Notes under the pieces: model-generated
What the model saw: only the letters and a program-made list of their open reading frames with translations
Databases searched by the model: none
Told to the model about the DNA's origin: nothing
Source of the DNA: Marsupella aquatica
Taxonomy: Eukaryota; Plantae; Marchantiophyta
Assembly: GCA_973895155.1 (NCBI GenBank)
Contig: OZ316892.1
Location: 17,784,357-17,848,356 of the forward strand
Reading direction: 5' to 3'
DNA: 64,000 nt
Shown here: positions 3,779-60,467 of the stretch, piece after piece
How the letters are laid out: every line of letters begins with the position of its first letter
Position numbering within the stretch: position 1 is the stretch's first letter
Program-made: the position numbers and the translations under genes

Positions 3779-3792
3779 CGTTATCAGCACGA
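3779..3792 (+). other. Primer binding site complementary to the tRNA-Ile anticodon arm (half-tRNA priming)
   Basis: CGTTATCAGCACGA directly after the LTR; no TGG (CCA complement). Confidence 0.65.
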
Positions 3793-29983: not shown

Positions 29984-30510
29984 AAAACAACTTTCATATT
30001 GACTATGAAGAAGCTTGGCCACTCTTCAAATTTGTAAGACATATAGCTGACTGTGTCAACCTCAAAGATAAAGACTCCACATTCACTATTCCAAATCCCC
30101 ACTCCCATAATTCATAAAAACAAGTTTTTATTAGGTTAAGCCCCAAACTGAGAGTTCTTACAGACCTAACCCCCAAACTATGTTTATTACTATACTGACC
30201 CCCAAGTAGTATATGAGGCTAGTAACCAGTATTCCTGCTCATGAGAGCACCTGATTGGTCTACTAGCTGGTTAGCTTAACCCATCCCATTCCCCCTTGGT
30301 CCCCTTCTCGTGCACTGCCCATGAACACTTGCCCAATGCCTCCCAAACGTGTCATCCTGCTGGCTCATCTTTCTTTCAAATAACATCGAGAAAGTGAGAT
30401 GCTGCTGTCCGGGGACACTGAAATCACACTACGCATGCATACCTCAATTGATTGTTGGGGCTTCAGGCTGTGTGTTGGGTATTTACTCTTACGTCTAGGT
30501 TAGGTATGAC

Positions 30511-30707
30511 GTGGTTGGTACAACAACGTGGGTTGGTACAACTACGTGGTTAGGTACAACTACGTGATTAGGTACAACTATGTGGTTAGGTACAACTACG
30601 TGATTAGGTACAACTATGTGGTTAGGTACAACTACGTGATTAGGTACAACTATGTGGTTAGGTACAACTATGTGGTTAGGTACAACTATGTGGTTAGGTA
30701 CAACTAA
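30511..30707 (+). repeat. 11 x 18-bp tandem array in LTR U3 (second copy at ~36659-36855)
   Basis: Unit GTG(G/A)TTAGGTACAACTA(C/T). Confidence 0.95.
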
Positions 30708-32121
30708 GTTGCACACTATATCATAAGAGGCATGTGTGCTTGGAGAGGTAGAACCAAGGCTCATTGTTATGGAGCCACTTGAGAGATAGGGAGAGCTTAC
30801 ACTGTGGAGACTCGGTATAGCCGACGGGCTTAGAGTTCAGTAAAGCTCTCTTGTGTGTTCCCGTGGACGTAGCCTCAAGGAGGTGAACCACGTATCTCTT
30901 GTGTCGACTATTGTGCGTTGGATGGTTCATGGGCTTGCCGTTGCGATCGTCATCTATGCTCAACAATTGGTATCAGAGCATGCTTGGGAGGTGACGTGTG
31001 TTCGTGACGGGATTTCATGACGGTTTTTCCAGCGTTGAGTGTTGGTGGATTTTCTAGAGTTCCATCGCATGGAACTTGGAGTTTATGGGCTCAACGGATA
31101 GATCAGGGCAAGAGCTTTCTAACGGTGTGAAGAAATCGTTGAACGGAGCTCGTGGTGCAGAGAGATCTAAGTTTTCGTCGTTCTGGATTTTGTGAAGAAA
31201 GTTGGCAATCGACTCGGAGGGAGAAGCGTCAAGTGTTTTGACTCAACGGAGAGATTGAGGCAAGACGATTGTTTTTGAGTCCGGGATTGGCTCTTTGATG
31301 CAAAGAGGAAGGCTAAGCAAAATCAATTACCTTGTTGGACTTGGTGACGACACCAAGTGCAATTGATCAACATTCGTTGTTGACAAGGTACCATTTTTTT
31401 CTCTTTGAAAAACTGATTCGAAATTGGCTATGGCAATTGAGAGAAATCTGTCATCTTTACCAATTTTTTTCTCCCTCGTTCTTTCCTCGTTTTGGGTGCT
31501 TCTTATATCGATCTTCATCGCCTCGGAGTCTAGTTTCCAAATCTGAAATCGGATCTTGATTTAGTCAAAACCCGAGTGAGATATCTTGCGTTTGGTGTCG
31601 AGGGGTACATTCTGCCGTGTGTATTTTCTGCGCGCGCGACCAGATTTCGACGACGAAGGGTGGTAGGGGGTTTTGGGGGTTCGAGGACACATGTCAGCCC
31701 CTCGATTGTTCTTCCAAAATTCCCACAGGGCCTGTACAAGGGTCATAGAATATTCCAAAAAAACCATAGAGCTATTTTTTTGACCGTCCGACAAAGATTT
31801 CATCCGCCGAACGGTAACTTTTTTGGTTATTTTTCGGCGAGGTCGTAGCCATTGAAGTTGGCAATGCAGCGCACCAATCACATCGCAATTCCGACAACGG
31901 GTTGTACTTGGTATTTCGGTTATTCCCTGAGGTGGTCAAAATGGGGGAGTTTCCCAAGGTTTTACCCACCTCGACCGAAATTTGAATAACTTTTTCGTCA
32001 AATTTCGATTTTGATTTCGGTTTTCAGTATTGGACTCCTAGCTTTGTGGGCTACGCGGCGGTGTTGAGTTTCGAGTTTTTTGAGAAGTTGTGAAAAACAA
32101 CATTTTTTGTGACTTTCTCAT

Positions 32122-33156
32122 ATGAGTGATTCGGAGGAGTTTTTCGAAGACGTGGAACTTGAAGCACGAGGGTCACCGCGGAGGTTTCAGGGGCAGAGAG
32201 AGGAGCAGGAGGAAGAGCACGTGACACCGATACCATCACCGGTGCGGCGTGTGGTGGAGGAAGCAGTACTACTACCGGAGCTCACGGTAAAGAAGAAGAT
32301 GGGGACTTTCAAGCTTGGGGGACCCAAGTATGAAGTGACAAAGTATGATGGGCGCTCTGACTACTTGCTATGGGAGAAGCAGGTGAAGGGAGTGCTTTAT
32401 GCGTCAGGGATGGGCCAACTGCTGAGCCCTCGTGAAGACGATGTTGATGAGAAACAATGGGACCGCATGCAGGAGCAGGGAGTGTGGTGTGTTACACTCT
32501 ATCTCATGCCTCCCATCATCAAGCAGTTGGGTGCACATAAGGATTGCATGTCCTTATTTGCGGAATTGCAGAGCAAGTATCACCGCAAGGAGTTGTCGAA
32601 CCGGCTCTACACTTCCTACAAACTGATGAGTTTCAGGATGAAAGAATCTGGTACGAAGTTGCAAGACCATGTGGATGCTTTCAACGACATGGTCGTTGAC
32701 TTGGAAAACCTTGGGGAGACTTTGAATGATGAGACGAAGGCTCTGCAGCTTCTTAGTTCATTGCCTCCATCTTACCAGTCCCTATCACGAGTGTTGTTGC
32801 ATCGTGATAGGGATACCATTTCATACAATGACGTGGTAAGTTCTCTGCTTAGTGATGATCTTCAGCAGAAGATGCACATCACGTCACAGCCTTCATCATC
32901 TGGTGCTGCCCTCAATGTTAACCGTGGGAGGAGTATGCAGCGACCAACTGGGGACCGTAGAACCCAGTTTAGATCTAAATCCAGATCTAAGTCCAAGGGT
33001 AAATCCCCTCAGAGGAGGCAGGTGACATGTTGGAAGTGCAACCAAGTTGGACACTTCAAGCGAGACTGTAAGGGAAAGGCAGCGGAAACTTCATCGGCAA
33101 ATGTGGCTAGGGCTGATGGAGAAGCTGATTTACTCAATGATGAGTATGTTTTATGA
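32122..33156 (+). CDS. Copia Gag
   Basis: KYEVTKYDGRSDYLLW, LLSSLPPSY, zinc knuckle CWKCNQVGHFKRDC; 344 aa, ends in TGA. Confidence 0.93.
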   Translation: MSDSEEFFEDVELEARGSPRRFQGQREEQEEEHVTPIPSPVRRVVEEAVLLPELTVKKKMGTFKLGGPKYEVTKYDGRSDYLLWEKQVKGVLYASGMGQLLSPREDDVDEKQWDRMQEQGVWCVTLYLMPPIIKQLGAHKDCMSLFAELQSKYHRKELSNRLYTSYKLMSFRMKESGTKLQDHVDAFNDMVVDLENLGETLNDETKALQLLSSLPPSYQSLSRVLLHRDRDTISYNDVVSSLLSDDLQQKMHITSQPSSSGAALNVNRGRSMQRPTGDRRTQFRSKSRSKSKGKSPQRRQVTCWKCNQVGHFKRDCKGKAAETSSANVARADGEADLLNDEYVL

Positions 33157-36100
33157 AGCCGGGGGTATGCCCTGTGCACGTCATCTAGGAGAGCAGATGA
33201 TGTGTGGATTCTTGATTGTGCTTGCTCTTTTCATATTTGTTACATTCGTGAGTTTTTCAGTTCTTACTCTATTTCAAACGGTTCAGTTCTGATGGGAAAT
33301 GATCACTCCTGTCAAATTGAGGGAATTGGGTTTGTGAAGATTCAAATGTTTGATGGCGCTGTGCGCACAGTGTCCGGAGTCAGGTATGTACCTGGCATGC
33401 GTAAGAATCTGATTTCACTCGGTGTGTTGGATTCAAATGGTCATCAATGGAGCGTTATTGATGGTGAACTTCAAGTCAGGTCGGGAGAGATAGTGATTTT
33501 GAAGGGGAGTAGACAAAAGAATTTGTATGTGTTACAGGGCAATACTGTATGTGGAGAGGCCAATGTAACCAAGTCTCACGAGGAGATGACTCAACTGTGG
33601 CATTCACGGCTAGGCCACATGAGTGAGAAGGGTTTGGCTATCTTACGGAAGAATGGACTCATTTCTGATTTGCAATCTTGTAAATTAGAGTTTTGTGAGC
33701 ATTGCATTCTTGGAAAGCAGCATCGTCGTGCTTTTGGTGTTGGAACTCAACGTTCCAAAGCGGTTCTTGAGTACATACATAGTGACGTGTGGGGTCCATC
33801 CCCGACTCCCTCACACTCTGGAAAGTTGTACTATGTATCATTTATTGATGATTACTCAAGATTTGTGTGGATTTATTTCATGACGCATAAGTCTGATGTC
33901 TTGTCCATTTTTAAGAAGTGGAAGGCCCAGGTGGAGAATCAGACTGGAAACACGATCAAGTGTTTGGATACAAGGGTGAAGAGTCTGAGGTCAGACAACG
34001 GCGGGGAGTACACTTCAATGGAATTTGAAGAGTACTGTTCAGAACAGGGGATAACTCGCCATCTCACCACAGTTTATACTCCGCAGCAGAATGGTGTCGC
34101 TGAGAGGCTCAATCGGACACTGTTGGAGCGGTCACGGAGTATGTTGAGCCAATCAGGTTTACCACAAGAATTTTGGGCAGAAGCTATCAATACCGCAGCT
34201 TATTTGGTAAATCTTTCTCCTTCTAGTGCTATCAATTTCAAAACGCCGTTTGAGATGCGCTATAAGCGGCAAACAGACTATCATGGCTTGGTAATTTTTG
34301 GAAGTGATGCATATGCTCTCACACCAAAGCAGAATAGGACCAAGTTGGATCCTACCTCCAGGAAATGTGTTTTTCTTGGGTACCAGAGTGGTGTGAAAGC
34401 CTATAGGCTATGGGATCCTATTGCCTGTAAGCTCGTTGTCAGTAGGGATGTTTCCTTCAATGAATCCAGATTATTGAAGGAGGGGGAGAATACTCAGGTC
34501 TCCCGTACTGACAAAAGAAAATCTCCTATCCCGGATCTCGTTGAGGGGGAGATTGGTTATGAGGTGCATGACCGGAGAGAAGGAGTTGCTCCAATTATGG
34601 AGCTGGTTCCTGTGCCAGAGGAACCAGAGGAGTTTGTTGATGCTGGTGAGCAGCAAGTGGATGCTGTTGAGCTTCAAATTGTACCAGCACACGCAGATCA
34701 ACCGGAGTCATCGGCTAGAAGAACATCTGGTCGCACTGTACGCGCTCCATCAAGGTATGGACAGTGGGTTGATTCATCTCAACTGCAAGAGGATGATTTT
34801 ACAGCTGATGATGAGGGTGATGCGTTAATTTTGGAAGAAGGAGAACCTTCTTCATTTCATGAGGCAAGTGCTTCAAAGGAGAAGCAAAAGTGGACTGTAG
34901 CAATGCAAACAGAGATGCAGTCACTAAAGGACAACAAAACTTGGGAGCTTGTTAAGCTGCCTAAGGGTCAGCAAGTGGTGGACAGCAAGTGGATTTACAA
35001 GCTGAAGGATAATTCCATAGGAGGTGGATCGAAGGTCTACAAGGCTAGATTGGTAGCAAAGGGATTCACACAAGAGAAAGGTGTGGATTACAATGAGGTC
35101 TTCTCACCAGTTGCTAAGTACTCTACAATACGACTATTGTGTGTACTTGTTGTAATGTTTGGTCTGCTCCTAGATCAGATGGATGTTGTCACAGCTTTCC
35201 TCTATGGCACATTGGAAGAGGTGATCTTCATGAGACAACCGCTAGGTTTTGTGAAGAGAGGACAGGAGGAATTGGTTTGCAGATTGCTGAAATCCTTGTA
35301 TGGGTTGAAGCAGTCACCAAGACAGTGGAACAAGCGGTTTGACGATTGGATTCGGTCACAAGGTTTTCACAGAAGTGTATTTGACCCTTGTGTGTATTTG
35401 AAACCGGTGAAGAATGTTGTCTTTGGGTTCATTGTTTTAGTACTTTATGTGGATGACATGCTAATTGCAGCCAAGGATAGGTCTGAGATTGTTAAGCTCA
35501 AGGCACTGCTTAGTGCAGAGTTTAAGATGAAGGACTTAGGGCCAGCTAAGAGGATTTTGGGTATGGAGATCACTAGGGACTTGGAGGCTGGCAAGCTATG
35601 GTTGACGCAGAGCAGTTATGCGAGGAAGGTAATTGCAAGGTTCAACATGGAGAATAGCAAGCCAGTAAGTACCCCGTTGGCTCCACACTTCAAGTTATCA
35701 TCAGCGTTCTGTCCTACGGATGACACAGAGAAGGGGTTGATGTCAAAGGTTCCATATGACAAGGCAGTGGGGAGTCTCATGTATTTGATGACTTGCACTA
35801 GACCTGATCTTGCCATGGCTATGGGCAAGGTGAGCAGGTACATGTCGAATCCAGGGAAGGTACACTGGGAAGCAGTGAAGTGGATTATCAGGTACTTGAA
35901 GGGTACCGTGGATCATGGTCTTTTATTTGATGCGAATGCAAAGAATGCTAGATCATTGATTGGCTATGTAGATTCTGACTATGGACAAGATTTGGACCGA
36001 AGGAGATCAACAACAGGATACGTGTTCACACTTGGCGGTGGATGCATAAGTTGGAGGTCTACTTTGCAGAAGTGTATTGCTCAGTCTACTACAGAAGCGG

Positions 36101-36429
36101 AGTATGTTGCAGCTGCGGAAGCAGCAAAGGAAGCGATTTGGTTGGATAGACTTATCACTGAAATGGGATTGCCACAGGGGAATGTGAAGCTCCATTGTGA
36201 TAGTCAAAGTGCGCTCCACCTTGCTGTGAACCAGGTGATGGACAGCAGAGTGAAGCACATTGACGTCAGGTACCATTTTATCAGGCAGGCTGTGTCTGAT
36301 AAATTGTTTGAGCTAGTCAAGATTGATGGTAAACTCAACCCGGCTGACGCATTTACCAAAGTGATTCCTTTGGAGAGTTTCTCTAGACACCATGACGTAT
36401 TGCAGGTTTTGCAATTGCATCACAAGTAG
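33157..36429 (+). CDS. Copia Pol (PR-IN-RT-RH), in frame with gag after one TGA
   Basis: WILDCACSFH, WHSRLGH..CEHC, HSDVWGP, LRSDNGGEY, QNGVAER, KARLVAKG, LYVDDM, YVDSD, ADAFTK; uninterrupted. Confidence 0.93.
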   Translation, partial: SRGYALCTSSRRADDVWILDCACSFHICYIREFFSSYSISNGSVLMGNDHSCQIEGIGFVKIQMFDGAVRTVSGVRYVPGMRKNLISLGVLDSNGHQWSVIDGELQVRSGEIVILKGSRQKNLYVLQGNTVCGEANVTKSHEEMTQLWHSRLGHMSEKGLAILRKNGLISDLQSCKLEFCEHCILGKQHRRAFGVGTQRSKAVLEYIHSDVWGPSPTPSHSGKLYYVSFIDDYSRFVWIYFMTHKSDVLSIFKKWKAQVENQTGNTIKCLDTRVKSLRSDNGGEYTSMEFEEYCSEQGITRHLTTVYTPQQNGVAERLNRTLLERSRSMLSQSGLPQEFWAEAINTAAYLVNLSPSSAINFKTPFEMRYKRQTDYHGLVIFGSDAYALTPKQNRTKLDPTSRKCVFLGYQSGVKAYRLWDPIACKLVVSRDVSFNESRLLKEGENTQVSRTDKRKSPIPDLVEGEIGYEVHDRREGVAPIMELVPVPEEPEEFVDAGEQQVDAVELQIVPAHADQPESSARRTSGRTVRAPSRYGQWVDSSQLQEDDFTADDEGDALILEEGEPSSFHEASASKEKQKWTVAMQTEMQSLKDNKTWELVKLPKGQQVVDSKWIYKLKDNSIGGGSKVYKARLVAKGFTQEKGVDYNEVFSPVAKYSTIRLLCVLVVMFGLLLDQMDVVTAFLYGTLEEVIFMRQPLGFVKRGQEELVCRLLKSLYGLKQSPRQWNKRFDDWIRSQGFHRSVFDPCVYLKPVKNVVFGFIVLVLYVDDMLIAAKDRSEIVKLKALLSAEFKMKDLGPAKRILGMEITRDLEAGKLWLTQSSYARKVIARFNMENSKPVSTPLAPHFKLSSAFCPTDDTEKGLMSKVPYDKAVGSLMYLMTCTRPDLAMAMGKVSRYMSNPGKVHWEAVKWIIRYLKGTVDHGLLFDANAKNARSLIGYVDSDYGQDLDRRRSTTGYVFTLGGGCISWRSTLQKCIAQSTTEAEYVAAAEAAKEAIWLDRLITEMGLPQGNVKLHCDSQSALHLAVNQVMDSRVKHIDVRYHFIRQAVSDKLFELVKIDGKLNPADAFTKVIPLESFSRHHDVLQVLQLHHK

Positions 36430-39021
36430 AGTTTTCTTAAACATTCATTGTAATTACTGATATATGCTCTTCCTCATTCCTATGTATTAGGCTACGGCTT
36501 AGTTCTGGTTTGCTCTAGTTAGAGAGGGAAACCGGTTTGGTTTCTGTCCAGAACTTCCCGCTGAGGGATCATATACATTGGCAGTATTACTCTCCCCTAG
36601 ACCAGAGTCAAGGGGAAGATTGTTGGGTATTTACTCTTACGTCTAGGTTAGGTATGACGTGGTTGGTACAACAACGTGGGTTGGTACAACTACGTGGTTA
36701 GGTACAACTACGTGATTAGGTACAACTATGTGGTTAGGTACAACTACGTGATTAGGTACAACTATGTGGTTAGGTACAACTACGTGATTAGGTACAACTA
36801 TGTGGTTAGGTACAACTATGTGGTTAGGTACAACTATGTGGTTAGGTACAACTAAGTTGCACACTATATCATAAGAGGCATGTGTGCTTGGAGAGGTAGA
36901 ACCAAGGCTCATTGTTATGGAGCCACTTGAGAGATAGGGAGAGCTTACACTGTGGAGACTCGGTATAGCCGACGGGCTTAGAGTTCAGTAAAGCTCTCTT
37001 GTGTGTTCCCGTGGACGTAGCCTCAAGGAGGTGAACCACGTATCTCTTGTGTCGACTATTGTGCGTTGGATGGTTCATGGGCTTGCCGTTGCGATCGTCG
37101 TCTATGCTCAACACTGTGGACCAATCAGACACTGCCATGGGCAGGATATACGGGTTACTTGGACTCATGCACTATTTGGGGGGCGGTATAATAATAAGGG
37201 TCAGTTTGGGGTCAGGTTGGTTTGGGGCAGGTTTATATAAACGCTCAGTTTGTGGGTTAGCCTAGTAAAAACCTTTTCATAGAAAACAATTTTGAGATAG
37301 TAAAAGTTTCCATAAAATAATTATCAGCTCATGCAACTTTGGTGAATGTGCTACTATACCAAAAATATAGTTATTACCTTTTACTACTAGTAATGCCCTT
37401 TGTGATTTCCTCTTACAAATTATTTTGTGATTTATAGAGAAGAATACACAATCTACGCAAACCAGATTTGAATCTAAATATTATCAAACTTGTCCTCCAC
37501 GTTCATTAAAATAGCTGGACCCAACTATAACAAATCTGTGCATTAAAATGAACATGAAGCTAATAGCAAGCCCAAATAAACCTAAAAATCTTTCAGACTT
37601 TATGTGTGTTGACACTAGAGAGCATTGTGGGCAAAAATAGCCCCTCAAAAGTCGAGCTCCTGTTACCAGAGCTATACTATATCCATAAAGTAATGACCAT
37701 CTCGTGCTTTGGTGAACGTGGTTCTACAGCATCCTTTCCATAAAGGAGGATCATCTCATGCAACTATAATGAACAGTGCTGCTATAGCAAGAATGACATC
37801 CTACAGAAGGGATATCAATAAATGATTAAGCTCGAAACACTTCCTAGAATCTCCATTGTCCAAGCTCAAAAGACTTTAAAACAACTCACCATTGTCGAAT
37901 TATGATGACCTAAAATAGATTCATAGTTTTCAAGCCTAAATGACAACCCTTTCTAAACCTATGACAGACGATCACAAAAATATTCTTCCCATGACCGAAG
38001 TTGTCGATCCTGAATTGCACTCATCGATCTCTGAGAGTCTCTCGTCAGTTATGACAGGTTTGATAATTTTATGTGCTTCAAATGACTGGCTCAGCTTTGA
38101 CTTAATATACTACATCAAACCCCTTAAACCTCTCATTCAAGATAGCAAAAAGTAAGAAGGGAAAAGAAGCGAGACAAGCTTACCGCACTGACATGTTCTG
38201 CTCCAACAACCACCTATTAGAGAGCCTCAGGGAAAAACAATTTCATGACCTTAAAATCTAGATTGCTATCCATAGCCAGAATATCAGCAGCAGAACGTCA
38301 TGTGATGGTGGGAACGAAGTCGTGTGCCCACGTTTTAACAAGGAACTGCGCAAGAATCCAAAGCAGTGAAGCGACACAAAATTTATCGATGTGGTAAAAA
38401 ATTGCATTCTGTGATCTGTGTCTCAACAAGAACCTACACGTTGTTGTGATCCATAGTTAATACACGGTGCATTTTTGGTGTACCCAGAAAAGATTCGTGT
38501 CACGTCTAATACGCCAAGTGAGAGAAAAACCAATGAAATCTCTCGTCTGACTATCGAACGAATCATAATCCAAGAACTCTGTCTTATTGACATGGTAATG
38601 AAGAACATCATCTCTTCAATGGTCCGAAGCTTCGGTATGGAAGGCTCGTCTAAAAGAATTCGATATGACGAATCAATGTTTAGATCCGGATGGCAATAAT
38701 CGTTGGATTTAGCTCCAACGATGATATGTACACAGAAAATTCCAAAATTACAAAGTTTCCACGACTCTGTCTATATAATGAGAGGCAATGCAGCACAGCC
38801 TGGAAAACAGGTTCCATCAATGCGTAGGGAACATTCATGCAGTTCAGTCCACAACTGCAACAGAAAGCGTCCTGAACAATGCCCGGCCGAGATTGGCCAT
38901 GGAGTATCTTCTATTCACAACGCCGAGCTTCTCATGAATAGGAGGTGTGGAACTTCAGCTTAGCAGCACCCCAAAAAGGAGAACGGATAGTAGGAGATTT
39001 TCTCCAGGAATAAACAGCAGT

Positions 39022-44830: not shown

Positions 44831-47166
44831 CTTCAACTAGGTTTGTCAGTTTGCCAATCACTATAGGTTGAGGTTTTTAGTTTTTGGTTGTTGTAGGGGA
44901 CTTTTGCTAGGGACTTACAGGCTTCTCTCTTTATGGCCTCTACATTTCTTGGCCTCTACTTTTCTTGGCTTTGACCAATTCATGTTTCTGTTTTACACTA
45001 TATGCAAATTACTATTGCATTGGGAGTCCGAACTACAGTATGTTCAGAGCATTTACAAGAGTCCTGAAAAATGACCAGTCCTCAACTATATCACAGCAAT
45101 AATAGCACTCCTTGCCTCAGAAATTGAAATTTTTCACCCCCATCTTATTCCATTTAAGTCATCAGAATCTACCTGGCCTGCCACTTCAGGGCTTGCGTAG
45201 CTGGCGCCATCGTGACCTCCTTCATACTCACTACCAGCTTAAATATATTTGTATTTACAAGATGGGCTCTCCATATCCCAGGAGTCACTACTCACAAGCG
45301 TATTCTATCATTATCAACATTGTCTGCTACCATAGAAATCACGCCCTATGGCTTCACTCTAAAGATTAGGTATGAGCTGTGGACTTCAAACTCAAATTAT
45401 AGTATGAATTCAAATCAATATTATATTTCCATGCTTCTCAAAAAGATGGATGATCTAAGGGCTCACCCTAGGGGGTTCTCATATCTTGTGCACCATTTTG
45501 GGGTAATAAACATTGGGGATGGACGTACATTGTTATTTATATTCCATTTGGCCCCTCTCCATGTCCATGATGCTTTCAATGTGTAATAAATCTCAGGGGC
45601 AACCAACTGGTTGTGGTCAATTGGCCAGAGGATGAGCCTAGAACTGAGAGGTCCCAGGTTCCACCCCCTCCCCTCCACATGCACGGGCTGTGGAGGGTGT
45701 GTGTGTGTGAGTCGGATGTAGTGGTAGGTGTAGTTTTTCTTCTCAACCCTGGCGTGTCTGCTTTAGGCTCTGGTTCAACCCTCCCTCCTGGTTCTGGGTA
45801 TGACCCCCCTTGTGGGCTACCCTACAAAGGTGCATGCTCCGGAGTTGATGTCTATCTTCTGTTGGATGAGTCAGCGTTTGGTTTTCAAGGCAAAGAAATA
45901 AACTTCAGGGGTAAACTCTGACCTGATGGCCCAACATGCACATGCAATGCCCTGAAAATGTGCCCAATACCAGACAGTATGCAATTGACATAACCAATGA
46001 GAATGCTCATAATTGGGCTGCTACAAATTCCATACTTTTTTGGCAATTCATGTTGTGTTCAACTTTATTGACTAATTTTGATAACCTAGATCCACCATCT
46101 GCCAGGTTTTGCTTCACGGGTAGTGGCGGTTTAATTGTAGAATGCACCTAGAGCCAACTTGCATGTGGGCAAACTTCATTTTCCAGCCCTTTAACTTAAA
46201 CCACAAATCATACTACAAGTACTCCGGGTGACCCGGAGTAGACATAACAAAAACGCGACATTCGCATTTGTGGACGGGCGCCCGTCGCCAGCCCTTCGAT
46301 CGAAGCTTGCAAAAATCTTATCCGTCCACCAAATGACCCGATCCACGGTTCAAATTCAAGATCTCTTCAAGATCTACGTATACAAAAAAACCAGGATTAA
46401 AAATGATAAAAAATAAGAAAGAAAATTGTGAAAAACAAATTCAGTGTTCTGATTGGCAGAGCCACAAATTCAAATTTGAAAAGTTTCGGGCAGGTCGGGC
46501 AGGGGACATCTGGCCTGCGGAAAATGCCTGTGGCAGGGCTCCTTCGCGGGTGCGGCCAGGCTCTCATATGGTCGGGCAGCACAGGCCTTTGTTGTGTGGG
46601 ACATCCGGCCAAAGAGGGCCCCGGCCCTGCCCTTGTGGGCCTGAGCGGCCTTCATTAGTTTAATTATAGTTTTCGCTTTGCTATTTTCGAAGATTTCCCC
46701 CTAGCATTTCGGTTCAAACTCCTGCCTGTGTACTTGAGGTCTCAGGTTCAAAACTTGCAAGTGTCCTCTGTGTGACTTGTACCTTTTTGGCAGCTGCAGT
46801 GTGCGCTGCCCTATGTGGGTGGCGGAAAAAATTTTGCAACGTGAGTTGGCGCGGCGGCTGGTTAGGGAACGTGTTAGGGTTACTAATAAAAATGCTTTGG
46901 ACGACCAGGATCTAAGGGGATGTAGCCAATGGGGAAGAGGGGTAGAGGGCTGGCAGGGGGCAAAGAGCCTGTGTGCTTGCATTCAGGCCTCATTGTCCTC
47001 CCCAAATTTTTATTCTCACCTCTTACTACCTTTCTACTTGTGTTCAACTTGAGGTTTTTTGGTGCAACTTTGTAGTTGCTTGCCGGGTTGGACTTGGCAT
47101 CCGGTCTCCGTTCTCCGTTTAGAGCTTGTAGGTTTTTTTTTAGTGTAGGTTTTAGGATAGGCTAGT

Positions 47167-50100
47167 ATGAGTATGCCGGGTCACCCCCCCCCCTCTTCCG
47201 GATGGGAGGCGGAAACGCCCCCCATAGGGTGGTGGTCCACCAAGGCAGCGATATCCGAGTGATGACATCGATTACAAGAAGAGGCGGAGACCGGATGCCA
47301 AGCCCGAAATCCGGGTCCCACTTGACCGGTGGGATGAGTGGGAGGACCTTAGAGCTCTACTTGGACAGGATACGACCCACTCTACTGTGGTCACATGGTT
47401 ACTTGATCGTGCACGGCCTATAGTTCAGGAGCTTCGGGTATGGCGAGCAGCTGAGCCCGCTCCAATTCCACCCGAGGCTATGCCTTCGCCCACAAGTGGT
47501 CAGCACATGGGTCAGGCTTCACAGTCATCACTTCAGGTGGGAACCTCCTTTCATTTACTCAATATTTGCCCATTTTAGCAATTCATTTTGGCCCTTTGTA
47601 TAAACCCATTGATTTAGGCTTATCCTGTACTATGCTTCTTATTTGAAACATAAATAATAAATCACATCTGAAGGAAAATGAAAGTCTCCCATTGTACCAA
47701 GAAGCATAATTATTTATATTTGAATATATAAACCCTTCATTGAAGCTCGTGCTGTATTGTAATTTCTATTTGACGCAAAAATTTAGTAAACCTGATTAGG
47801 TCAGGTATTAGGGTACTCAAGGGTCATAATAAACAAGCACATGTATTTATATTTGAATATATAAACCCTTCATTGAAGCTCGTGCTGGATTGTAATTTCT
47901 ATTTGAAACAAAAATTTAGTAAACCTGATTAGGTCAGGTATTAGGGTACTCAAGGGTCATAATAAATAAGCACATGTATTTATATTTGAATATATAAACC
48001 CTTCATTGAAGCTCGTGCTGTATTGTAATTTCTATTTGAAACAAAAATTTAGTAAACCTGATTAGGTCAGGTATTAGGGTACTCAAGGGTCATAATAAAC
48101 AAGCACATATATTTATATTTGAATATATAAACCCTTCATTGAAGCTCGTGCTGTATTGTAATTGTCAGGTTTGTGTTTATTGAAGAAAATTGGCTTCAAT
48201 AACCCTCCACCAATATGGTCAATAATTATTGGTCAAACTCTACCTTAGGATTTATTGTAACCATATTTGTGGAGTATTTATTTTTGTATAATCCCAACAT
48301 TGTCTTCCAGGATGCACTACTCGAAGACGATGTTGTCTTAGACGAGAATATTGCAGAGCAATATGGATCAGATGCAGAAGATGAATCCATGTATCGGGAT
48401 GATGATCCAGATGTTGTTGCAGCTTTAGGAGCTGACCACATTGGGGATGGGGATACCTTCCAGGTTTGAGCTCTTTCACATTATCCAAGGCTTCCCATTA
48501 CAATTTTGCAATTGTTGAGACACAATCTTTAATTCATATCCGTGACATTTTTTACAGGAGTTGTTCATCGTCCCCGATTCCCAGACGTCTCGACCTTCTC
48601 CAGATGTAGACCCTCAGCCATCTCCAGAGGCCAATGATCAGCCATCCCGGGTTGCAGACTCTCAGGCATCTCGCGCACCTGACTCTCAGCCGTTACGACC
48701 TCCCGACGCACTCCCGACTCGTAGAACGAGCCCTCGTGTACCAGCCAGGGTAGCATTTTTTGATCGCAACTTGTTGGGTACTTTTGTTGACAGGCTACTA
48801 CCCCGGTGTCATATACATGCATGTCCTCGGATCCCAAGAGTTGAGCGAGTGTCCGAGTTGCATCAGTTGTGGTCTATTCATATTGGTTGTGGAGAGGATG
48901 GACGTGGCTGGACTTTTGTTACGGGTGACAATGAGCCTGGGAGGAGTTCGCCTATGATTACCCCTCAGTTGTATCATTCCACCCTTTGTGCTGGCCTCAC
49001 CTATACCTCCTTGGCTGCTGTTGCCGCGTATCTTGGATTACATGTCCCCACTGCAGCTCATTGGCATGACTTTCAGAGTGGTCGTGGTCATCCTCGGGGT
49101 GGATGGATAGCAGCTGTGAGACAGCAATGGGAAGAAAACAAAAGGCATATGTGGCAGCAATTGAGGGATACTATTCAGCAGAGGCGAGCAACTGAGACTA
49201 GTAAGTAATTTATTTTACCCTCTTTCACTTTCTCTAGTTACTCAAGGATCAAAGTCTTATTGGGTCTTGATGAGTTTTGATTCTAATAGTTACTATATGC
49301 ATTGGTTATGACAGACCCTGGGTTAGTAGTGTATTTGGATACTCGATGGGATTCTTCTCGGAGCGGTTATCATGGTACCACCTCTATTTTGAGCATGGAA
49401 GATAATAGGGTAATTGAGATGGTCACAATTACTAGAAGAGAGGAGAGAAATGCTTGGCACATGGAGGACAAGGGTACTCAGAGGGCATTGGATAATCTGA
49501 GAGAGGCTGACATTTCTATCATAGAGGTTATCCATGATGACAAAGCCACTATTGATAATATTGTGGAGGACATGGAGATTAGGAACCAGAAGGACTTGTG
49601 GCACAAGGCCAAAAACCTTGTCAAGAAGTTTGTGGAGAAGATGGTGAGCGCCACATATACTGTGACTATTGACATTGATACTGCCGCATCCCGTTCTGAG
49701 TTGCAAGCAGTAACCGCTAAGAGATTACAGGATTGGCTCAAGGCACGGGGAGTGAGAGGGTATTCAACCCTTAGGAAGGAAGCACTTATTCACAAAGTTG
49801 GCGACATGCGTGGATTGCCTCTAGGTGAACTAGTACATATTCCGACACGTGGTCTCAAGTACCCAGAGTTGTCTCAGCACAACATTGCCACAAAGTTCAA
49901 GACCTGGTTTTATGTATGTTGTCGACGATGTAAGAGCAGGTATTTACAATGTTCATGTTTGGCGACTTTTCAATTTGATATAATGTGTAAATACTAATGT
50001 TGGTTTGGTTTGGGTTTATTTTACCCTAATTGACTATAGAATGTTCAATATGCAGTGGGGGGACGCTGCATCTCTGGCCTTCGAGTTGAGCAATTGTGGT

Positions 50101-50668
50101 GATCATTGGGCCGGGGATCATAGTTTATGTGCGAGATTATCTGACAGACCTTGTCAACATCTTGAGGAAGCAGAAGCTATCCAGCTTGACCATTACTATG
50201 CAAGAGGTAAGTAATTTAATTTGTGACCTCCTTTTGTGACTTATGTCACATGTTAGCATGATTGAACTTCCATGCATGACTTTTTTATTGAATTTTTGTA
50301 CTTTGTGCATGTAGGTGGGGAGACTCACAAGGCAATGCAAAAGTTCATGAAAAAATACATTACTCCTGCGACGATGAGGTTTTATACCATGGCCCGGGAG
50401 AATTTCATGTCAGAGACCTACCATTCCGTCATGGGCAAGTATGCCACCAAGCGTATTCATTTTCGGCAAGCCATGAGGCCCGTTTGTGTTGTGCTGCCAT
50501 GGATTGGAACGAGAATATAAGAAGACATGTTTGGAAGGTATATGATCGCAGACTTGTGAATACAAGTGTCAGAGAGCGTCCTCCTCGAACACGAGTATTG
50601 GTGGATCGCACCACTAGTTGGAAGGACACAACAAGTGAACGCATTTATGGTGTGACAAGTCCATGAGG
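47167..50668 (+). pseudogene. Spliced Kolobok-type DDE transposase with few lesions
   Basis: Exons ~47167-47536, 48311-48463, 48558-49200, 49315-~49912/49939, 50056-50206, 50315-50668 with GT-AG sites. Motifs: LDTRWDSSRSGYHGT (D1), HMEDKG, IHDDK (D2), KDLWHKAK (DxxH), HWAGDHSLC, SETYHSVMGKYATKRIHF (E), ARLCCAAMDWNEN. Lesions: C-run frameshift ~47190, TAG ~47225, 1-nt loss ~50462. Confidence 0.8.
47712..48163. repeat. 133-bp tandem repeat, 3.4 copies, in transposase intron 1
   Basis: Near-identical units start at 47712, 47845, 47978 and 48111. Confidence 0.95.
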
Positions 50669-51162
50669 TAAGACACTCCTCCATAAATATGATTGCAAGC
50701 ATAAAATGTAAGGATAGGGTATGTTTGAGGTAATTCTAATTACAAATTGTTTTTTTGCAGGATGATTTCATGTCATCCTAGATGCTCAGACATTACCACC
50801 CAAGTACTTTCTCTCTATAAGATCAGCGTACATATGGAGTAACACCTCCATATATGACCTCGGCTAACATACCTCATGTGAGTGAAAATTGTGACTTATT
50901 CTTTCTGGAAACAATTCATTGTAGTGTGAAAATTTGTCATTTTGTGTACCTCAATGCTAATTTTATTGTTTACCATTGCAGGGGTGATTTCCTTGAGGAG
51001 GGCTGAGACCTGGCACCACTTGTATTTCATCCTTTTTGCATGGATAGTGTTAGCAATCCGGACTTGGGGGTACCCTATTACTATCAACTTGGAATGCTAT
51101 GCCAAAATTTCAAACTTTTATAAATTATGTTTTTCGTCAATTTTTTTCATACCATGCCCAAA

Positions 51163-51540
51163 CAGTCTTATAACCTGGGCACCAAGTGAGGGAATGAGAA
51201 AAGTTTAGAAGTGGAGCACCAAGCGAGGGAATGAGTAAAGTTTGTGGTTATTGAATGACAGTCTTATAACCTGGGCAACAAGTGAGGGAATGAGAAAAGT
51301 TTAGAAGTGGAGCACCAAGCGAGGGAATGAGTAAAGTTTGTGGTTATTGAATGACATATGGCATTTTTGGGCAGCTTTGAGAGGTAGTAATCATCTGGGT
51401 CCCTTTGCCAACCTAGTGATGGAATGAGAAAAGTTTAGAAGTGGAGCACCAAAGTGAGGGAATGAGTAAAGTTTGTGGTTGACATATGGCATTTCTGGCC
51501 GCTTTGAGAGGTAGTATCATTTGGGTCCCTTTGGCAACCT
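51163..51540. repeat. Internal ~97-bp repeats between the two transposon genes
   Basis: ggaatgagaaaagtttagaagtggagcaccaa..gggaatgagtaaagtttgtggtt occurs three times. Confidence 0.9.
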
Positions 51541-51860
51541 TGTCTCATTTTGGTTTCATTGAATATGTCAACATCTGAAGGGAATTGATCTTTTCATGCT
51601 GCCAAACAAAAGCAAGAGTTGTCTCCCTGTAACAGGTGCAATTGTGATGCACAATATTTCAAACAAGAGTTCTCCTCCTGGAAAAATTGCAATTGTGGTA
51701 CTCTAACCCATGTCTAACCCATAGCCATGTACTCCCAAGGGGAATTGAACCCCTTTTGCTGCCAACCAGCAGGAGTTATACTCTGCAAATAGTTTATTAG
51801 TAGATATTGGCAGAAATTTCAAACAAATGTGAAACATATATAGCAGAAGCCTGTGTACTC

Positions 51861-52259
51861 CTAATTTGGAATAAATCCTACAAATTCCTCCCCTTCATCA
51901 TGCCAAGTCGCCTTCACACAAGCTTCAACAGCTTCGGGAAACTTGGTTCTATCAGAAAACCCTGCTATGTAAGCCAAGTGAGTGTAGACCTGAAATCTTT
52001 TCCTTCTCATGACAGTTTCAGCATAACTGTATGCTGCGCACATGATAAATTGTTCAATCGGGACTACAGGATTGAGATCCATGTGACACTCTGAAATTGT
52101 AGTAGAGAATTCAGGAAAATCAGCTTGGACTTGTTCCAATGTGACAGTCCGGACAATAGGTGGAGCATCGCCAACATCAGCAGGATCCTGCCAACTCAAG
52201 GTGTAGGTCCCATTGTCATGTTCAGTCAATGTGGCTCTCAACTTTCGAATTGGTGCCAT
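51861..52259 (-). CDS. KolX-like accessory protein (P2X7 C-terminal-like tail motif), 132 aa
   Basis: Intact ORF from ATG 52259, ending RKRFQVYTHLAYIAGFSDRTKFPEAVEACVKATWHDEGEEFVGF, which fits the R..AY..F....G...R..LP.CV...IR..FP.....YVGF pattern. Convergent with the transposase. Confidence 0.65.
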   Translation of the reverse strand: MAPIRKLRATLTEHDNGTYTLSWQDPADVGDAPPIVRTVTLEQVQADFPEFSTTISECHMDLNPVVPIEQFIMCAAYSYAETVMRRKRFQVYTHLAYIAGFSDRTKFPEAVEACVKATWHDEGEEFVGFIPN

Positions 52260-52539
52260 GTTCCTGAAAAAATCAAACACTCAAATATCACATATGCTGT
52301 TGCTGCCCAACACCCACATAAAATATGAATTCAACAATAGAGATCCAGCAGAGACCGACTCAAATCACCCAAAACCAAGTCTGACTCATTGCAACAAGAC
52401 ATGAATACTACATTGCTCGAAAATTGACATTGCAATGTAACGAAGGAGGAGAGGGGACCAGAGAGTTGACACTATCCCTAGTGAAGCTGAAGCTGAAGCT
52501 GGAATGTGGGCACAACGGCATGAGCAAGGAGCTTGAGCT

Positions 52540-53170
52540 ATGGAGCGAGCAACCTTGACCTGCAGCAATGAGCAAGCTTGAGCAGCAATCGAGGTTGGTG
52601 AGGGACCCAAGGCAGAAGCGAGTTGAAGCAGCAAGAGAGCTTGGACAGAGGCAGCAACAAGTTGAAGCAGCGAGCTTGGACCGAGGCAGCAGCAAGTGAG
52701 GGCAGCAGCGAGTTGAAGCGGCGAGCTTCAGCAGCAACAGCCGAGGCAGCAGCAAGATTCAGCAACAAGCTTGGACCGAGGCAGCAACGAGTGAGGGCAA
52801 CAGCGAGTTGAAGCGGTGAGCTTCAGCAGCAACAGCCAAGGCAGCAGCAAGCGAGCTTGGACCAAGGCAGTAGCGAGCTCGGGCAGCAGCGAGTTGAAGC
52901 AGTGAGCTTCAGCAGCAATAGCCGAGGCAGCAGCAAGATTTCAGCAGCAAGCGAGCTTGGACCAAGGCAGCAGCGAGCGAGGGCAGCAGCGAGCGAGGGC
53001 AGCAGCGAGTTGAAGCTGCGAGCTTCAGCAGCAAGAGCCGAGGCAGCAGCAAGTTGAAGCTGCGAGCTTCAGCAGCAAGAGCCGAGGCAGCAGCAAGATT
53101 CAGCAGCGAGCTTCAGCAGTGAGCTTCAACAACGAGTTCAAGCAATGAGTTGAAACAGCAAATATATTTA
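52540..53170. repeat. GCA-rich compound tandem repeat inside the Kolobok-like element
   Basis: Recurrent gcagcagcgagttgaagc.gcgagcttcagcagcaa.agccgaggcagcagcaag modules. Confidence 0.9.
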
Positions 53171-54445
53171 GCAGCAAGTTGAGTTGAAGCACAAAATTGT
53201 TTCAGCAGCGAGATCAAGCAGGAAATCGAGCAGCAACAGCGAGTAGGGGCAGCCGAGAGCTTCGCAAACAGGGGCAGCCAAGGGTGCAGCAAGTAGGGCA
53301 GTCCGTGGATGGCTATGGCAGCCGTAAGCTCAAAGGGAGGAGGCCATACACATTCAGCTGGGAGGCAGCAGCGAGCCTCGGCAGCAACAGCCCCAGCAGC
53401 AGCGAGTTGAAGTCAGCAGCAAGTCGAATGAAGCAGCAAGTTGAATGAAGCACCAACAGCCAAGGATGCATCAAGCTTCGGCAATCGATTGAGTGGCAAC
53501 AGCAACCAGGGGCAGCAGATGGTGCAACGAGCATGGGCACACTGTGGCTGGCTATGGTAGCCAAAACCTCGAAGGGAGGAGTGTGAGAGGAGGCGAGCAG
53601 CTTGCAGGAGGCCAGCAGCTCGCAGGGGTCGAAGGGAGGAGCGGGGAGGAGGCGAGCAGCTCGCAGGGGCAGCTCGTCGCAGTCTAGGGCTGGTGGGGGA
53701 GGGGAGGGCGGCCCTGCTGACCCTGGGTTAGTCCCTCGGGTTCGAACTGGTCTCTGACCCAGTGGGCAGAGTGGCACGCTCGCGGGCAGGGCTCGGGGTC
53801 CTTATGTACCCCGAGTTGTGGTTTAACAGATTGCATTCAATCGTTGACAGACAATATTATGCCTCAACGCCTAGTCAGGCAGGCCTGGGTTTGAACCAAG
53901 GGCAAGGGGCGGAAATTTGTGGGCCCTTGAGTTCCTGACCTGTAAAATCTAAAAATAAGACAAAATGAGGTAGGGCTACCAAAGCTGGGCCTGCTGACAC
54001 CTAACAACCGCAAATTAGGGACAACCAAGGGCCCCAAAAGAAAGGGCAACTTACATGCAAGATGGCTCAAAGACACTATACAATTATGCATGGTTTCCCG
54101 TAGACAAAGGGGCAATTGTAGCATGCCAGCAAGTAGGAAAAAATTCCACTTCACAAACTTACTCCCTAACTAGCCAAAACTTGGTTAGTAAAAACACAAA
54201 TTTTGGATTGGGAATCTTAGAAATGCATTAGAAATACAAAAGTCAGCAGACTGCCACTAACCATTAACAACCACTTGTGACTGGCTAACAATACTCTCCT
54301 AGCTAGCCAAAATTTTTGTGTGCCTGCATCATACAATATCTCTACATGAAGGGTTTATAGTTGATATTTGTTAACTAGCTCATCCCATTGTCAGCTGAAA
54401 AAGGCTTCAAGCTAGGGTTGAGTTAACTAGCCTACCCTCTGGGTC

Positions 54446-56090: not shown

Positions 56091-57662
56091 ATGGCGGTCA
56101 CGCTAATGCAGCCCTCTCTGGCTTGCAGTGCGGCCTCGCAGACGAGGTTGCCAGCAGCTGGTGCAGGAGGAGCGACGAGCGTGGACCAGCCACGATGCAG
56201 CTACTCGCCGGTCCCCTCCACTCGTCCAGGTTGCGTTGCATTCCGTTCTGTTCTATTCTGTTCCGTTCCATTCCATTCCATTCTTCTTCTTTCTTGAGTG
56301 AAAGGTCTGTGATTCTAGAGTCGAAATCGTAGATTTGGTTGTCGATAGGTGAGCTGTATGTCCCTGGTGCTTCCCTTTGCTCCAAATTCTTGAGTCTCGT
56401 TTGAATCCTGCAATGTCGGAGTATCAGATTGAGAGTGCTCTAAAATTCGATGTCGAGGAAGAGATACGCGCGTTTTCGAAGAGAACGTGGGGACCCTCGG
56501 AGCGCTGAGAAATCTCAGTGATATGGCCATCGAGAACTTAGAATTGACAGGAGAAACGGATCTCCGTGAAGTTCAAACGAGCTGTAGAAACTTGAACAAT
56601 TGGGCTGGCATTGTTGGCAGAGCAGTGGAACTCGTGCCTCATAGCATTTGAAGCAGTCAAAGCCTCGTGCCCGCTTGCATCGTGAACCAGCTCTTATAGG
56701 TTTTGCATGGAGACTGGCACTGCCCGCCGGGGTCATATCAGCCGACCATTGTAGTCTGTGAAAGTGAATGCCTCTTAGATGCAGAATGTCAAGCTCTCGT
56801 GTCATACCATTGCCAGTACGGGCACCTTAATTTATGTATTTTGTTCATTTTTATCCCTATACTACAGTGAAGTAGATGGAGAATGTCAAGTTCTCTTCTC
56901 ATACCATTGCTAATATGGTCACCCATTTCTATGTCTGTTATTGACTTCTGATCTTTAAAAAATGTTAGCGGGACTCAAATTCGAGCAAGGGTCCAGATGA
57001 GAATGCTACCATGTGTTTCTTCTATGAGTGCGTTGCCTTAGAATATTTTATGGAGATGTGTTTCCGCCGGCACCTAGAGCATTGTCTGCATTCAAATTTC
57101 TGGAAATCCCCTAAATTTCATTTTGTTCCAGAGATGTTGATGGTTAGTTTGTGGGCATTCAGGTTCTATCTCGACGTTTCGTCATGGGGTTTGCAAAGGT
57201 GCCAGAGGATCTTTTGGAGGGGATGTTAGCTATCTCAGAGCCGCTATCATGAGTTTTCCTCATGGGGTTGCATCAGGTTCGAGGCCTGTGACTGACATGA
57301 ATGTCAATTCGTCTGGCAAAGCCAAGCCTGTTATTCAGTTCATCAGAGGCATCAACGAACAGTCTGTCCCAGACGTAAAGCTTACAAGATCCCGGGATGG
57401 ATCAAATGGAGTAGCAAATTTTGAGTTCGACGAGCCTTCAGTGTTTGATTCTTCTAGGGAGTTGGGAGATATCACTGGCCTTTACCTGATTGATTTTGAA
57501 GGTGTGCTATCATCAGTTGATGTCAGTGCCAAGTTTGTCAATGGAAAGCCTGCTAAGATAGAAGCCCGATACGTGATGCGTAACCTTAAAGAGTGGGATC
57601 GCTTCATGCGATTCATGGAGCGCTATGGAGAGGAGCATCAGCTTGGCTTTGTAAAGAGTTGA
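56091..57662 (+). CDS. psb28: Photosystem II assembly protein Psb28 with plastid transit peptide, 2 exons
   Basis: Exon 56091-56229 ([16 protein letters not shown]..., transit-like) splices in phase 1 to 57163-57662: [23 protein letters not shown]...LIDFEG...KFVNGKP...[11 protein letters not shown]. Confidence 0.95.
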
Positions 57663-58814: not shown

Positions 58815-60467
58815 TCATCGCGGTCGCAATGGGACTGTGTATGGCGTGGGGAGGTGGATCCGGTGTGGTATTGAACTTCCAGCACCAGCCCCATCGAGCC
58901 CAAATGAAGAAGAGAGGCTACTTCGATATTGTTCCAAGTCTGATTGAGGTTGAGTGGGACCAAGCGTTGAACCAAGAGATGAACCGTGTCCTTCGATAAA
59001 GTCTGAATGACGAAAGTTGTTGGACGTGGGCGTCAAACCGGAAGAAGGCCTCGCTGGCGGATGCCACAATTGTCCCGGAGTCCAAACGGAAGTGAAGGGC
59101 TCCGTCGCACCGTCCCTCCTCCAAGGAACAGAACTCTGACCACCACTCTGGTGTCCTGCACCATGTGATTCTAGTCCGGGAACAGGTGGCTCCGGCCCCA
59201 AAGTTAGTGAAAGATCTGTCCAAGAGTGACTAAACCTCCTATTCAGCTCTCCTGCAGTATGACCAGTATCAGTCCTTCCACCTGATATCGAAGGGGAAAT
59301 CGTTCCATTTTGCCTTGCCCTTCTACCGCTGCCTGTCGGTGCACTCCGAAGAGAAGAGCTTTGTGGTTGTGACTGGCTTGTGCCAACTTGCCCATGCGCA
59401 AAACGAGGCCTTGGGCATGGTCCTACCGGCAGGCTACCACCATCTGTAAGCAATTCGTGGTTGTGTTGCGCACTGTAGGTGCCAAGAACACTGTCGTACT
59501 GGCTATTTTGCCTTTCGGTCTCAGTGCGAGTCCAAGAATTCGATCTTTCAGGGGCAGAAGGTGCCGATCCTGTGTCCCCAAAAACTGTTGCACTATTGCG
59601 AGGAAGGAAAGGAAGGTCCATCATATGAGATAATCTTGGTTGTTCTCCAAAGATAGATGGATCAGTCCGGTGTCCATACCCAGAGTGCAGGCGAGGGCCC
59701 CAGATGTTGCTGCGAGAGTTGAACAAATCTCCATTGCCAATCGATGACCCCACAGAAGAGCCGCTGTTTGATGCACCGGATGGATCGAGGGGTCTATTGG
59801 GTCGACCTGCCACGGGGGGTCGCACACGGGCCTCATCTGTACCTCGAGACTGTCTGCCTTGTGCCTCAAGGTAAGGACAGACGGGAGGAGAACTGCTTGC
59901 ACCCCCAGTAGTACTTTCATTGTAGTTGTAAGACACATTGACAACCACCTCCGGAAGAATTCTGACGGGCCCATCGTCATGCCGTAGCGGCACCGAAAAG
60001 TGAACTTGCTCGTAAGAGCTTCCACCCGCCGCTGCAAGGCTCCCGTGTTGATACGGGCACCAGTCGAAGTGATTAAGCGAGTCTGGCGCGACCAGAAAAG
60101 GAAGAAATGTCGGATAAGCTTCATTCGCGTCTTCCTCGTAGGAGAATTCCTCCAGCCGTAATCCAGCCTCGATCGAGAAATCTTCATTCAAGCGCGATCC
60201 ATTGGCGTCGATCGAGAATTCGTCACTCAAGCGCGATCCGTTGGCGTATAGCCACTGCCCATTTTCCACATGCCTACAATTAGGGCACTGCATCGCCCCC
60301 TTGGCATTGAACGCGGACCCAATGCAATCCAGATGGAAATGATGGCCGCATTTCAGCTTCGCAATCGATCGCTCGCCGGAATCGCTGACGGCGTCTAAGC
60401 AGACAGAGCAGAACTCCGACGCTCGAAACATCTTCGCCAAGTCTCGCTCCGAAGACACGGCACCCAT
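58815..60467 (-). CDS. RING-H2 E3 ubiquitin ligase, RFI2/IPI1-like, intronless, 550 aa
   Basis: CSVCLDAV..GERSIAKLKCGHHFHLDCIGSAFNAKGAMQCPNCRHVENGQWLYANG, followed by WCPY, CPY and a long low-complexity tail. Confidence 0.92.
   Translation of the reverse strand: MGAVSSERDLAKMFRASEFCSVCLDAVSDSGERSIAKLKCGHHFHLDCIGSAFNAKGAMQCPNCRHVENGQWLYANGSRLSDEFSIDANGSRLNEDFSIEAGLRLEEFSYEEDANEAYPTFLPFLVAPDSLNHFDWCPYQHGSLAAAGGSSYEQVHFSVPLRHDDGPVRILPEVVVNVSYNYNESTTGGASSSPPVCPYLEAQGRQSRGTDEARVRPPVAGRPNRPLDPSGASNSGSSVGSSIGNGDLFNSRSNIWGPRLHSGYGHRTDPSIFGEQPRLSHMMDLPFLPRNSATVFGDTGSAPSAPERSNSWTRTETERQNSQYDSVLGTYSAQHNHELLTDGGSLPVGPCPRPRFAHGQVGTSQSQPQSSSLRSAPTGSGRRARQNGTISPSISGGRTDTGHTAGELNRRFSHSWTDLSLTLGPEPPVPGLESHGAGHQSGGQSSVPWRRDGATEPFTSVWTPGQLWHPPARPSSGLTPTSNNFRHSDFIEGHGSSLGSTLGPTQPQSDLEQYRSSLSSSFGLDGAGAGSSIPHRIHLPTPYTVPLRPR

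Follow-up and report, generated by a model that had tools for sequence, protein, structure and literature searches.

The locus described here raises the question of whether a two-gene, TTAA-flanked element in the genome of a liverwort, Marsupella aquatica, belongs to Kolobok, a DNA transposon superfamily, and, if so, how its lineage came to reside in land plants. The element lies within a window of 64,000 nucleotides, this window being the whole stretch of DNA analysed. In the accessible parts of the published account of the superfamily, Kolobok elements are defined by TTAA and RR..YY termini, with a 4-bp TTAA duplication as the rule, and the hosts listed there are animals, fungi, chlorophytes, rhodophytes, and protists, with no land plant named (PMC9587614). 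Kolobok is less alien to plants than the original prediction had it: besides the animals, fungi, and protists from which these elements are mainly known, chlorophyte and rhodophyte families and Kolobok_1_KlNi also appear in those parts (PMC9587614). The C/DxxH motif is common to Kolobok, Mutator-like, hAT, and P transposases; a His/Cys zinc finger between C/DxxH and the final E is present in almost all Kolobok (all but Kolobok1) and absent from MuDR, P, and hAT. The second gene of the Kol0 lineage, KolX (related to the P2X7 ballast), has the seven conserved Cys residues of the ballast zinc site, and some piggyBac families carry Cys-poor KolX-like genes (PMC9587614, same parts). Copies of Kolobok in Xenopus, in the part of the report available, have AG ends and are 7–14 kb long (PMC6004289).

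The element is very probably a full-length, frameshifted copy of a multi-copy TTAA DNA transposon that likely moved by cut-and-paste with a Kolobok-type DDE transposase, and its lineage has likely been in green plants since before land plants. The direct observations behind this reading concern its ends, the right boundary shared by its copies, its exon–intron layout, its catalytic motifs, two reading-frame breaks, and the occurrence of related proteins in liverworts, Chara, and Closterium (Table 1).

Table 1. Features of the element, with positions and strands given relative to the window.
Feature	Position	Strand	Basis or remark
Left TTAA, target-site duplication	46196..46199	.	Sequence; depth step in four runs
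Left terminal inverted repeat, AC start	46200..46209	+	9/10 match to right end
Left sub-terminal palindrome, inverted CTCSGGGT pair	46220..46240	.	Candidate transposase binding sites (putative function)
Transposase exon 1, N-terminal helical region common to Riccia relatives; frame broken at 47183–47230	47167..47536	+	
133-bp tandem repeat, 3.4 copies, within intron 1 (47537–48310)	47711..48163	.	
Transposase exon 2, acidic linker	48311..48463	+	
Transposase exon 3, linker and Cys/His region ahead of catalytic domain	48558..49200	+	
Transposase exon 4: first D (49338), second D (49536), DxxH (49593–49604), SAP-like insertion (~49698–49790)	49315..49939	+	
Transposase exon 5: zinc-finger-like set (its His/Cys residues), situated between DxxH and catalytic E	50040..50206	+	
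Transposase exon 6: catalytic E (50413), frameshift 50459–50462, DWNEN motif, stop 50664–50666	50315..50666	+	
Tandem repeats, 96- and 134-bp units, between the two genes	51162..51540	.	
Intact 132-aa second gene, convergent with transposase, Cys-poor, KolX-like tail	51861..52259	-	
GC-rich internal tandem arrays, upstream of second gene	52610..53150	.	
Right sub-terminal palindrome, inverted CTCSGGGT pair	53792..53815	.	Sequence
Right terminal inverted repeat, GT end	53813..53822	-	Pairing with left end
Right TTAA, target-site duplication	53823..53826	.	21 contigs (three runs) diverge after 53826

The element occupies positions 46200–53822 (7,623 bp) between TTAA at 46196–46199 and TTAA at 53823–53826, and the TTAA-flanked inverted ends claimed for it are present. 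The terminal repeat, ACCACAAATC at the left and ACCACAACTC at the right on the reverse strand, is exact over 7 bp and pairs at 9 of 10 bp overall; by itself it lies within chance (3 matches with one mismatch versus 2.0 expected), so the boundary call rests instead on contig data from public runs. Six runs contain the stretch, under three organism codes and none recorded as RNA, and the summed contig depth in them is not a copy number. At the left end, the summed depth in four runs rose from 31, 45, 255, and 6 before position 46188 to 171, 539, 1464, and 29 after it; it remained high across both genes and, at position 53828, dropped from 1619 to 56, 5104 to 208, 76 to 8, and 60 to 0 (four runs). 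Among the contigs listed, 5 in run X2, 11 in run X3, and 5 in run X5 had loose ends immediately after 53826, beyond which their flanks were unlike one another (agreement 0.41–0.49), and 3 more stopped at 53825 or 53827 (24 right-end contigs were listed, with 22 further rows unseen). The left end was placed by depth and symmetry, and the right end by depth and loose ends. The predicted sharing of the right boundary at TTAA was borne out, with at least 21 contigs ending there in unrelated flanks, and TTAA stands on both sides, as the Kolobok duplication would have it. Mutator-like, hAT, and P elements leave duplications of 8–11 bp with variable sequence, and no longer direct repeat of that type was found at the element junctions. 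The element is thus a mobile, multi-copy unit sitting in TTAA sites.

Inside the TTAA, the termini read AC..GT and not RR..YY, a deviation that had been pointed out at the start and was confirmed in the sequence, and because of it the element is filed as Kolobok-like. If the duplication comprised the central TA only, through a 2-base stagger inside TTAA, the ends would become AACC..GGTT and obey RR..YY, and a TTAA site yields the identical sequence under both readings. This alternative is unlikely, given that 21 of the 24 right-end contigs listed retain the fourth base (53826) and that Kolobok, in the accessible source, as a rule has a 4-bp duplication of TTAA (PMC9587614). The retention of that base makes TTAA the target under either reading.

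In a 352-nt contig from run X5, likely an empty site, the left flank runs up to 46189 and continues straight into 53823. The proposed search for empty sites thereby yielded one candidate, but this contig is approximately 9% diverged and lacks 46190–46195, six bases that a clean insertion would keep. The TTTAAC that precedes the left TTAA (46190–46199), absent in the putative empty-site contig, may have been left long ago as a footprint or may reflect an indel in a diverged paralogue. The identity of the aligned contigs ranged from over 99% to under 90%, which indicates both young and old subfamilies. The last 44 bases of the element (53783–53826) were common to contigs that were unlike it further inward, and this sharing of the tip alone probably reflects sister families or non-autonomous elements that terminate identically. 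No second copy of the element occurred within the 64-kb window. The inverted CTCSGGGT pairs, which were absent from the original prediction, lie at each end within 45 bases of the tip and make up 4 of the window's 7 matches; 2.2 matches were expected, and 7 were reached in 2 of 100 shuffles.

Several other features were observed in the window. A very high-copy repeat, perhaps a MITE or SINE, adjoins the left of the element (45600–45890; summed depth 3,000–18,700 in three runs). At 30473–37113 lies a young, complete Copia LTR retrotransposon with 493-bp LTRs that are 99.8% identical, TG..CA ends, and a CTGTG duplication; its gag and pol frames are parted by a single stop near 33154, and each LTR contains an 18-bp tandem array. 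The second Copia (3638–9616), its frame broken in several places, has short LTRs of 141 bp that are 99.3% identical. The host genes comprise a Psb28 gene (57141–57662, plus strand; E 2e-40), a single-frame RING-H2 gene of approximately 550 aa (58818–60467, minus strand), and what is presumably an N-terminal exon resembling plant AMP deaminase (24958–25431, minus strand).

The six-exon, plus-strand model of the transposase held up on comparison with a protein of Riccia sorocarpa (P0001): a read-through from 47228, with an X at one break, contained no internal stop and aligned with it end to end at 39% identity over 747 columns (E 1.8e-154). Five GT-AG introns with a GC content of 29–34%, in agreement with the AT-rich introns reported initially, join the exons in frame; diverged sister contigs lose their match across introns 4 and 5, and the exon 6 stop coincides with the end of the Riccia proteins. 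The six exons would be spliced as modelled. Additional GT-AG pairs at 50668–50760 and 50878–50981 were rejected as bounding coding exons and are likely 3' UTR introns, since the Riccia proteins end where exon 6 ends. The frame is broken at two places. At the first, the start codon at 47167 is out of the conserved frame and a TAG at 47225 lies within it, and sister contigs carry indels at 47224 and 47230. At the second, the frameshift at 50459–50462, an extra base was present in 300 of 398, 2478 of 3096, 2470 of 4584, and 23 of 52 units of sister depth in the four runs. The transposase of the present copy is evidently dead. These two breaks and the SAP-like insertion are, on the sequence, additions to the first description of the locus.

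All of the transposase motifs quoted originally are present in the stated order. In an alignment of 32 relatives, the catalytic residues were kept in most of the ungapped rows (first D, 23/24; second D, 29/30; the H of DxxH, 27/29; E, 24/27), with 66 residues between the first and second D and 19 between the second D and DxxH. The distance from DxxH to E was 196–246 residues in 8 of 9 parsed rows and 449 in the ninth (6 of 15 rows were unparsed). This last was P0097, one of the Closterium-clade relatives in which, as in P0099, the insertion that follows the SAP region is far longer. In the interval from C/DxxH to the last E, where Kolobok transposases have their zinc finger, stand His and Cys residues that form a putative zinc-finger-like set and a predicted zinc site (H517, 31/32 rows; H522, 29/32; C525, 29/32; P0001 numbering). 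The Pfam SAP domain was matched in 17 of the 32 relatives (best E 5e-9), within the extra stretch between DxxH and E; the insert in exon 4 of the present copy gave just a weak Rho_N match (E 0.17). The SAP domain had brought KDZ/Zisupton into consideration, and this candidate was dropped, as the 16 Pfam families matched included no such family and TTAA is the target.

The AlphaFold model of P0001 (pLDDT 77) matched the ISCth4, P, and Hermes transposases in Foldseek (E 1e-4 to 3e-3), and VIA returned matches with Z 13.8 (rmsd 4.5, 261 aligned) and Z 11.9 (rmsd 4.1, 226 aligned). The top fold match was the IS256/Mutator-like ISCth4. We know of no solved Kolobok structure, so a fold search reaches just the relatives of Kolobok; the predicted-fold matches place the transposase in the C/DxxH clan and have no power to choose the superfamily. 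Motifs, conservation, and predicted-fold matches together indicate a C/DxxH DDD/E transposase of the kind found in Kolobok. It is very unlikely that the element is Mutator-like (PF20700/IS256-type), hAT, or P-type and occupies TTAA by coincidence, because TTAA is fixed at the right end in at least 21 contigs, against the variable 8–11-bp duplications of those elements, because no MULE, hAT, or SWIM family (nor piggyBac or KDZ/Zisupton) was among the 16 Pfam families matched by the 32 relatives, and because the His/Cys set is present between DxxH and E. What speaks for such an identity is that the sole transposase family matched in Pfam was PF20700 'Mutator-like' (weak matches in 10 of 32 relatives, best E 3e-7), that ISCth4, P, and Hermes were the best folds, and that C/DxxH is common to all of these groups in the accessible source (PMC9587614).

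Of the proposed Kolobok identity, the TTAA target, the DxxH-bearing DDE transposase, the shared ends, and the existence of copies all stood; the termini are not RR..YY, and the comparison with Repbase Kolobok sequences was made by eye only. The piggyBac superfamily is characterised by a DDD triad without C/DxxH and by YY..RR ends, whereas the present element has DxxH, a final E in place of a third D, and ends that start with A; no piggyBac family appeared in Pfam or among the fold matches listed. It is therefore hardly credible that the element is a piggyBac whose second gene resembles KolX, although such an identity would suit the TTAA target and recall the piggyBac families with Cys-poor KolX-like genes in the available text of PMC9587614. 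The preferred reading remains a Kolobok-like element, which likely works as a Kol0 element does.

The convergent 132-aa ORF was found intact, with the quoted tail. It lies within the multi-copy part of the element, and diverged sister contigs match just over it (51876–52283). Three relatives were found, at 51–70% identity, and of its 3 Cys residues at most 2 are conserved across the four sequences, against the seven of the KolX ballast. Aligned by eye, its last 47 residues and the Cys-poor KolX from piggyBac-2_GrCh show approximately 11 identities in 47 columns and have R-x-x-x-P, W-x-D-E, and the final G-F in common (from the accessible supplement). A class pattern for the tail, written post hoc, was present in all 4 family members, in none of 193 other proteins, and in 1 of 100,000 shuffles. 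On the other side, searches of the ORF against Pfam, PDB sequences, Foldseek (E < 0.001), VIA (Z 5), and Atlas gave no P2X7 or KolX match, and an Atlas search with residues 60–132 alone was as blank as that with the whole protein. The best VIA match of its model had Z 4.3 (rmsd 3.3, 76 aligned), the pLDDT of the modelled tail being 30–38; a stretch of formate dehydrogenase among the PDB sequences (E 0.018) was taken as chance. A complex prediction for Riccia P0001 (residues 156–661) with the ORF scored 0.00. Searches of the loci around relatives confirmed none of the 176 (alignment A5) and 80 (P0045) stretches from metagenome contigs and none of the 70 from viral contigs (alignment A3).

The original assignment of this ORF to KolX thus finds a likeness in the tail motif but blanks in the Pfam, PDB, fold, and Atlas searches. 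The 132-aa protein is probably homologous to KolX, to judge from its tail. That it is instead an unrelated passenger or a family-specific accessory gene is possible though somewhat doubtful: this would explain the blank searches, the few conserved Cys residues, and the small number of relatives, but it leaves aside the alignable tail, the rarity of the tail pattern in the controls, and the confinement of the sister-contig matches to the ORF.

The relatives of the transposase found in word searches were all from Riccia (10/10 and 29/29). A profile search at E 0.001 retrieved 717 proteins, of which 150 were listed; the 30 looked up among these comprised 7 from Chara braunii, 6 from Riccia, 2 from Closterium, 1 from Calypogeia fissa, 1 mixed cluster, and 13 without an organism. 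Among these 30 there was no animal or fungal protein and no moss, fern, or seed-plant name. The mixed cluster (P0048), an 891-aa relative, was recorded from both Pyramimonas and Prorocentrum transcriptomes, and one of these labels is probably contamination. In a tree of 25 rows selected for length, the liverworts (91/91), Chara (99/99), and Closterium (100/100) each formed one group, and the present transposase fell among the liverworts, beside Calypogeia (89/90, not starred).

This clustering of relatives by host favours old vertical inheritance over recent transfer, without proving it, as the tree had no outgroup and its rows had been selected by length. That the element arrived through recent horizontal transfer, with an animal, fungus, or protist as donor, is quite improbable. 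The patchy known range, the lack of moss, fern, and seed-plant names among the matches looked up, the 13 of 30 without an organism, and the uncertain origin of the Pyramimonas and Prorocentrum cluster would suit such a transfer, but the closest named relatives are liverwort proteins, the groups follow their hosts, and the long insertion is common to the liverwort, Chara, and Closterium relatives. Of the two origins offered at the outset, the data agree better with 'ancient and overlooked' than with horizontal acquisition, and the lineage is likely old in plants and overlooked. Papers on algal Kolobok elements are known; no paper on Kolobok in land plants was found in the literature searched, in which some flowering-plant genome papers mention Kolobok once. 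In the available part of a survey of 1,007 plant genomes screened for Kolobok, active elements came from seven other superfamilies only (PMC12973397), and the corresponding part of the R. sorocarpa genome paper does not mention Kolobok (PMC11735767). The accessible sections of PMC8616336 and bioRxiv 2021.09.26.461848 contain nothing on Kolobok in plants, the mention in the review concerning animals. Repbase may already hold such families.

Under the preferred reading of a Kolobok-like plant transposon, an intact sister copy would make a spliced transposase of approximately 770 aa, whose N-terminal helices, Cys/His regions, and SAP-like module would bind DNA, the paired CTCSGGGT palindromes near each end being its likely binding sites. 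The D-D-E site with DxxH would cut the ends at the AC..GT tips and join them to TTAA with a 4-base stagger, and repair would produce the TTAA duplication. The present copy would move in trans only. The 132-aa protein, likely a Cys-poor relative of KolX, may be a putative non-catalytic helper of transposition; no transposition function for KolX was seen in the accessible portions of the literature searched.

We lean slightly towards a broader proposal, namely that these elements form a separate, plant-native, TTAA-specific branch marked by a SAP module in the catalytic domain, by AC..GT ends, and by a Cys-poor partner resembling KolX. On this view the branch has passed down from the common ancestor of Chara, Zygnematophyceae, and land plants and was active in recent times in non-seed plants, and plant repeat pipelines have missed or mislabelled it. 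If the Kolobok assignment is true, a DNA transposon superfamily is added to the land-plant list, and the Riccia 'SAP domain-containing' genes are transposases, not host genes. The near-identical sister copies make an intact element findable, which would provide a plant-native, TTAA-specific transposon for testing KolX-like proteins and the SAP insertion. The SAP-like insertion inside the predicted transposase and the AC..GT ends are new here; algal Kolobok families are already known from the accessible source (PMC9587614).

The Riccia (e.g., R1sor_008396), Chara, Closterium, and Calypogeia proteins belong to the same transposase family, are 25–42% identical to the read-through, and in most cases bear annotations as hypothetical or SAP proteins rather than Kolobok. 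The following comparisons with described Kolobok families draw on the parts of PMC9587614 and its supplements that were available. Kolobok_1_MicRcc299 (Micromonas) and Kolobok_1_KlNi (Data S5) are also Kolobok in green plants in the wide sense, but in both the first D is followed by a second (CCHC) zinc finger, and their motifs differ (PMC9587614). The present element, without a CCHC finger there, belongs to a lineage other than these two rows. We take the KlNi tag to stand for Klebsormidium nitens. The small, Cys-poor KolX-like proteins of piggyBac-2_GrCh and piggyBac-14_PI (Data S6) have a similar C-terminal tail but are borne by piggyBac, and the likeness was judged by eye and with a post-hoc pattern (PMC9587614). 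The word 'SAP' is absent from all four supplements, and no insertion of the length of the SAP stretch was seen in the Data S5 rows compared (PMC9587614). The rows Kolobok_16_CGi, _1_MyEd, and _1_NaeGru match H-D and N-D-L-W-H as well as the Kol0 rows do (PMC9587614). With Kol0 (type Kolobok-1_XT), the element has in common the TTAA duplication, short imperfect inverted ends, a small second gene, the D-x-R-x-D-S first motif, M-E, D-x-W-H, the His/Cys set before E-x-[FY]-H-S, and the lack of a second zinc finger after the first D; it differs in its AC..GT ends, its plant host, and a second gene missing most of the seven Cys residues (PMC9587614). Its size falls inside the range of the Xenopus copies (PMC6004289, available part). 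The spacing from the first to the second D and from the second D to DxxH is 66/19 here and, by hand count, 67/21 in Kolobok_1_XT, whereas DxxH and E are 204 residues apart here and 127 there, a difference of approximately 75 extra residues with the SAP-like module (PMC9587614).
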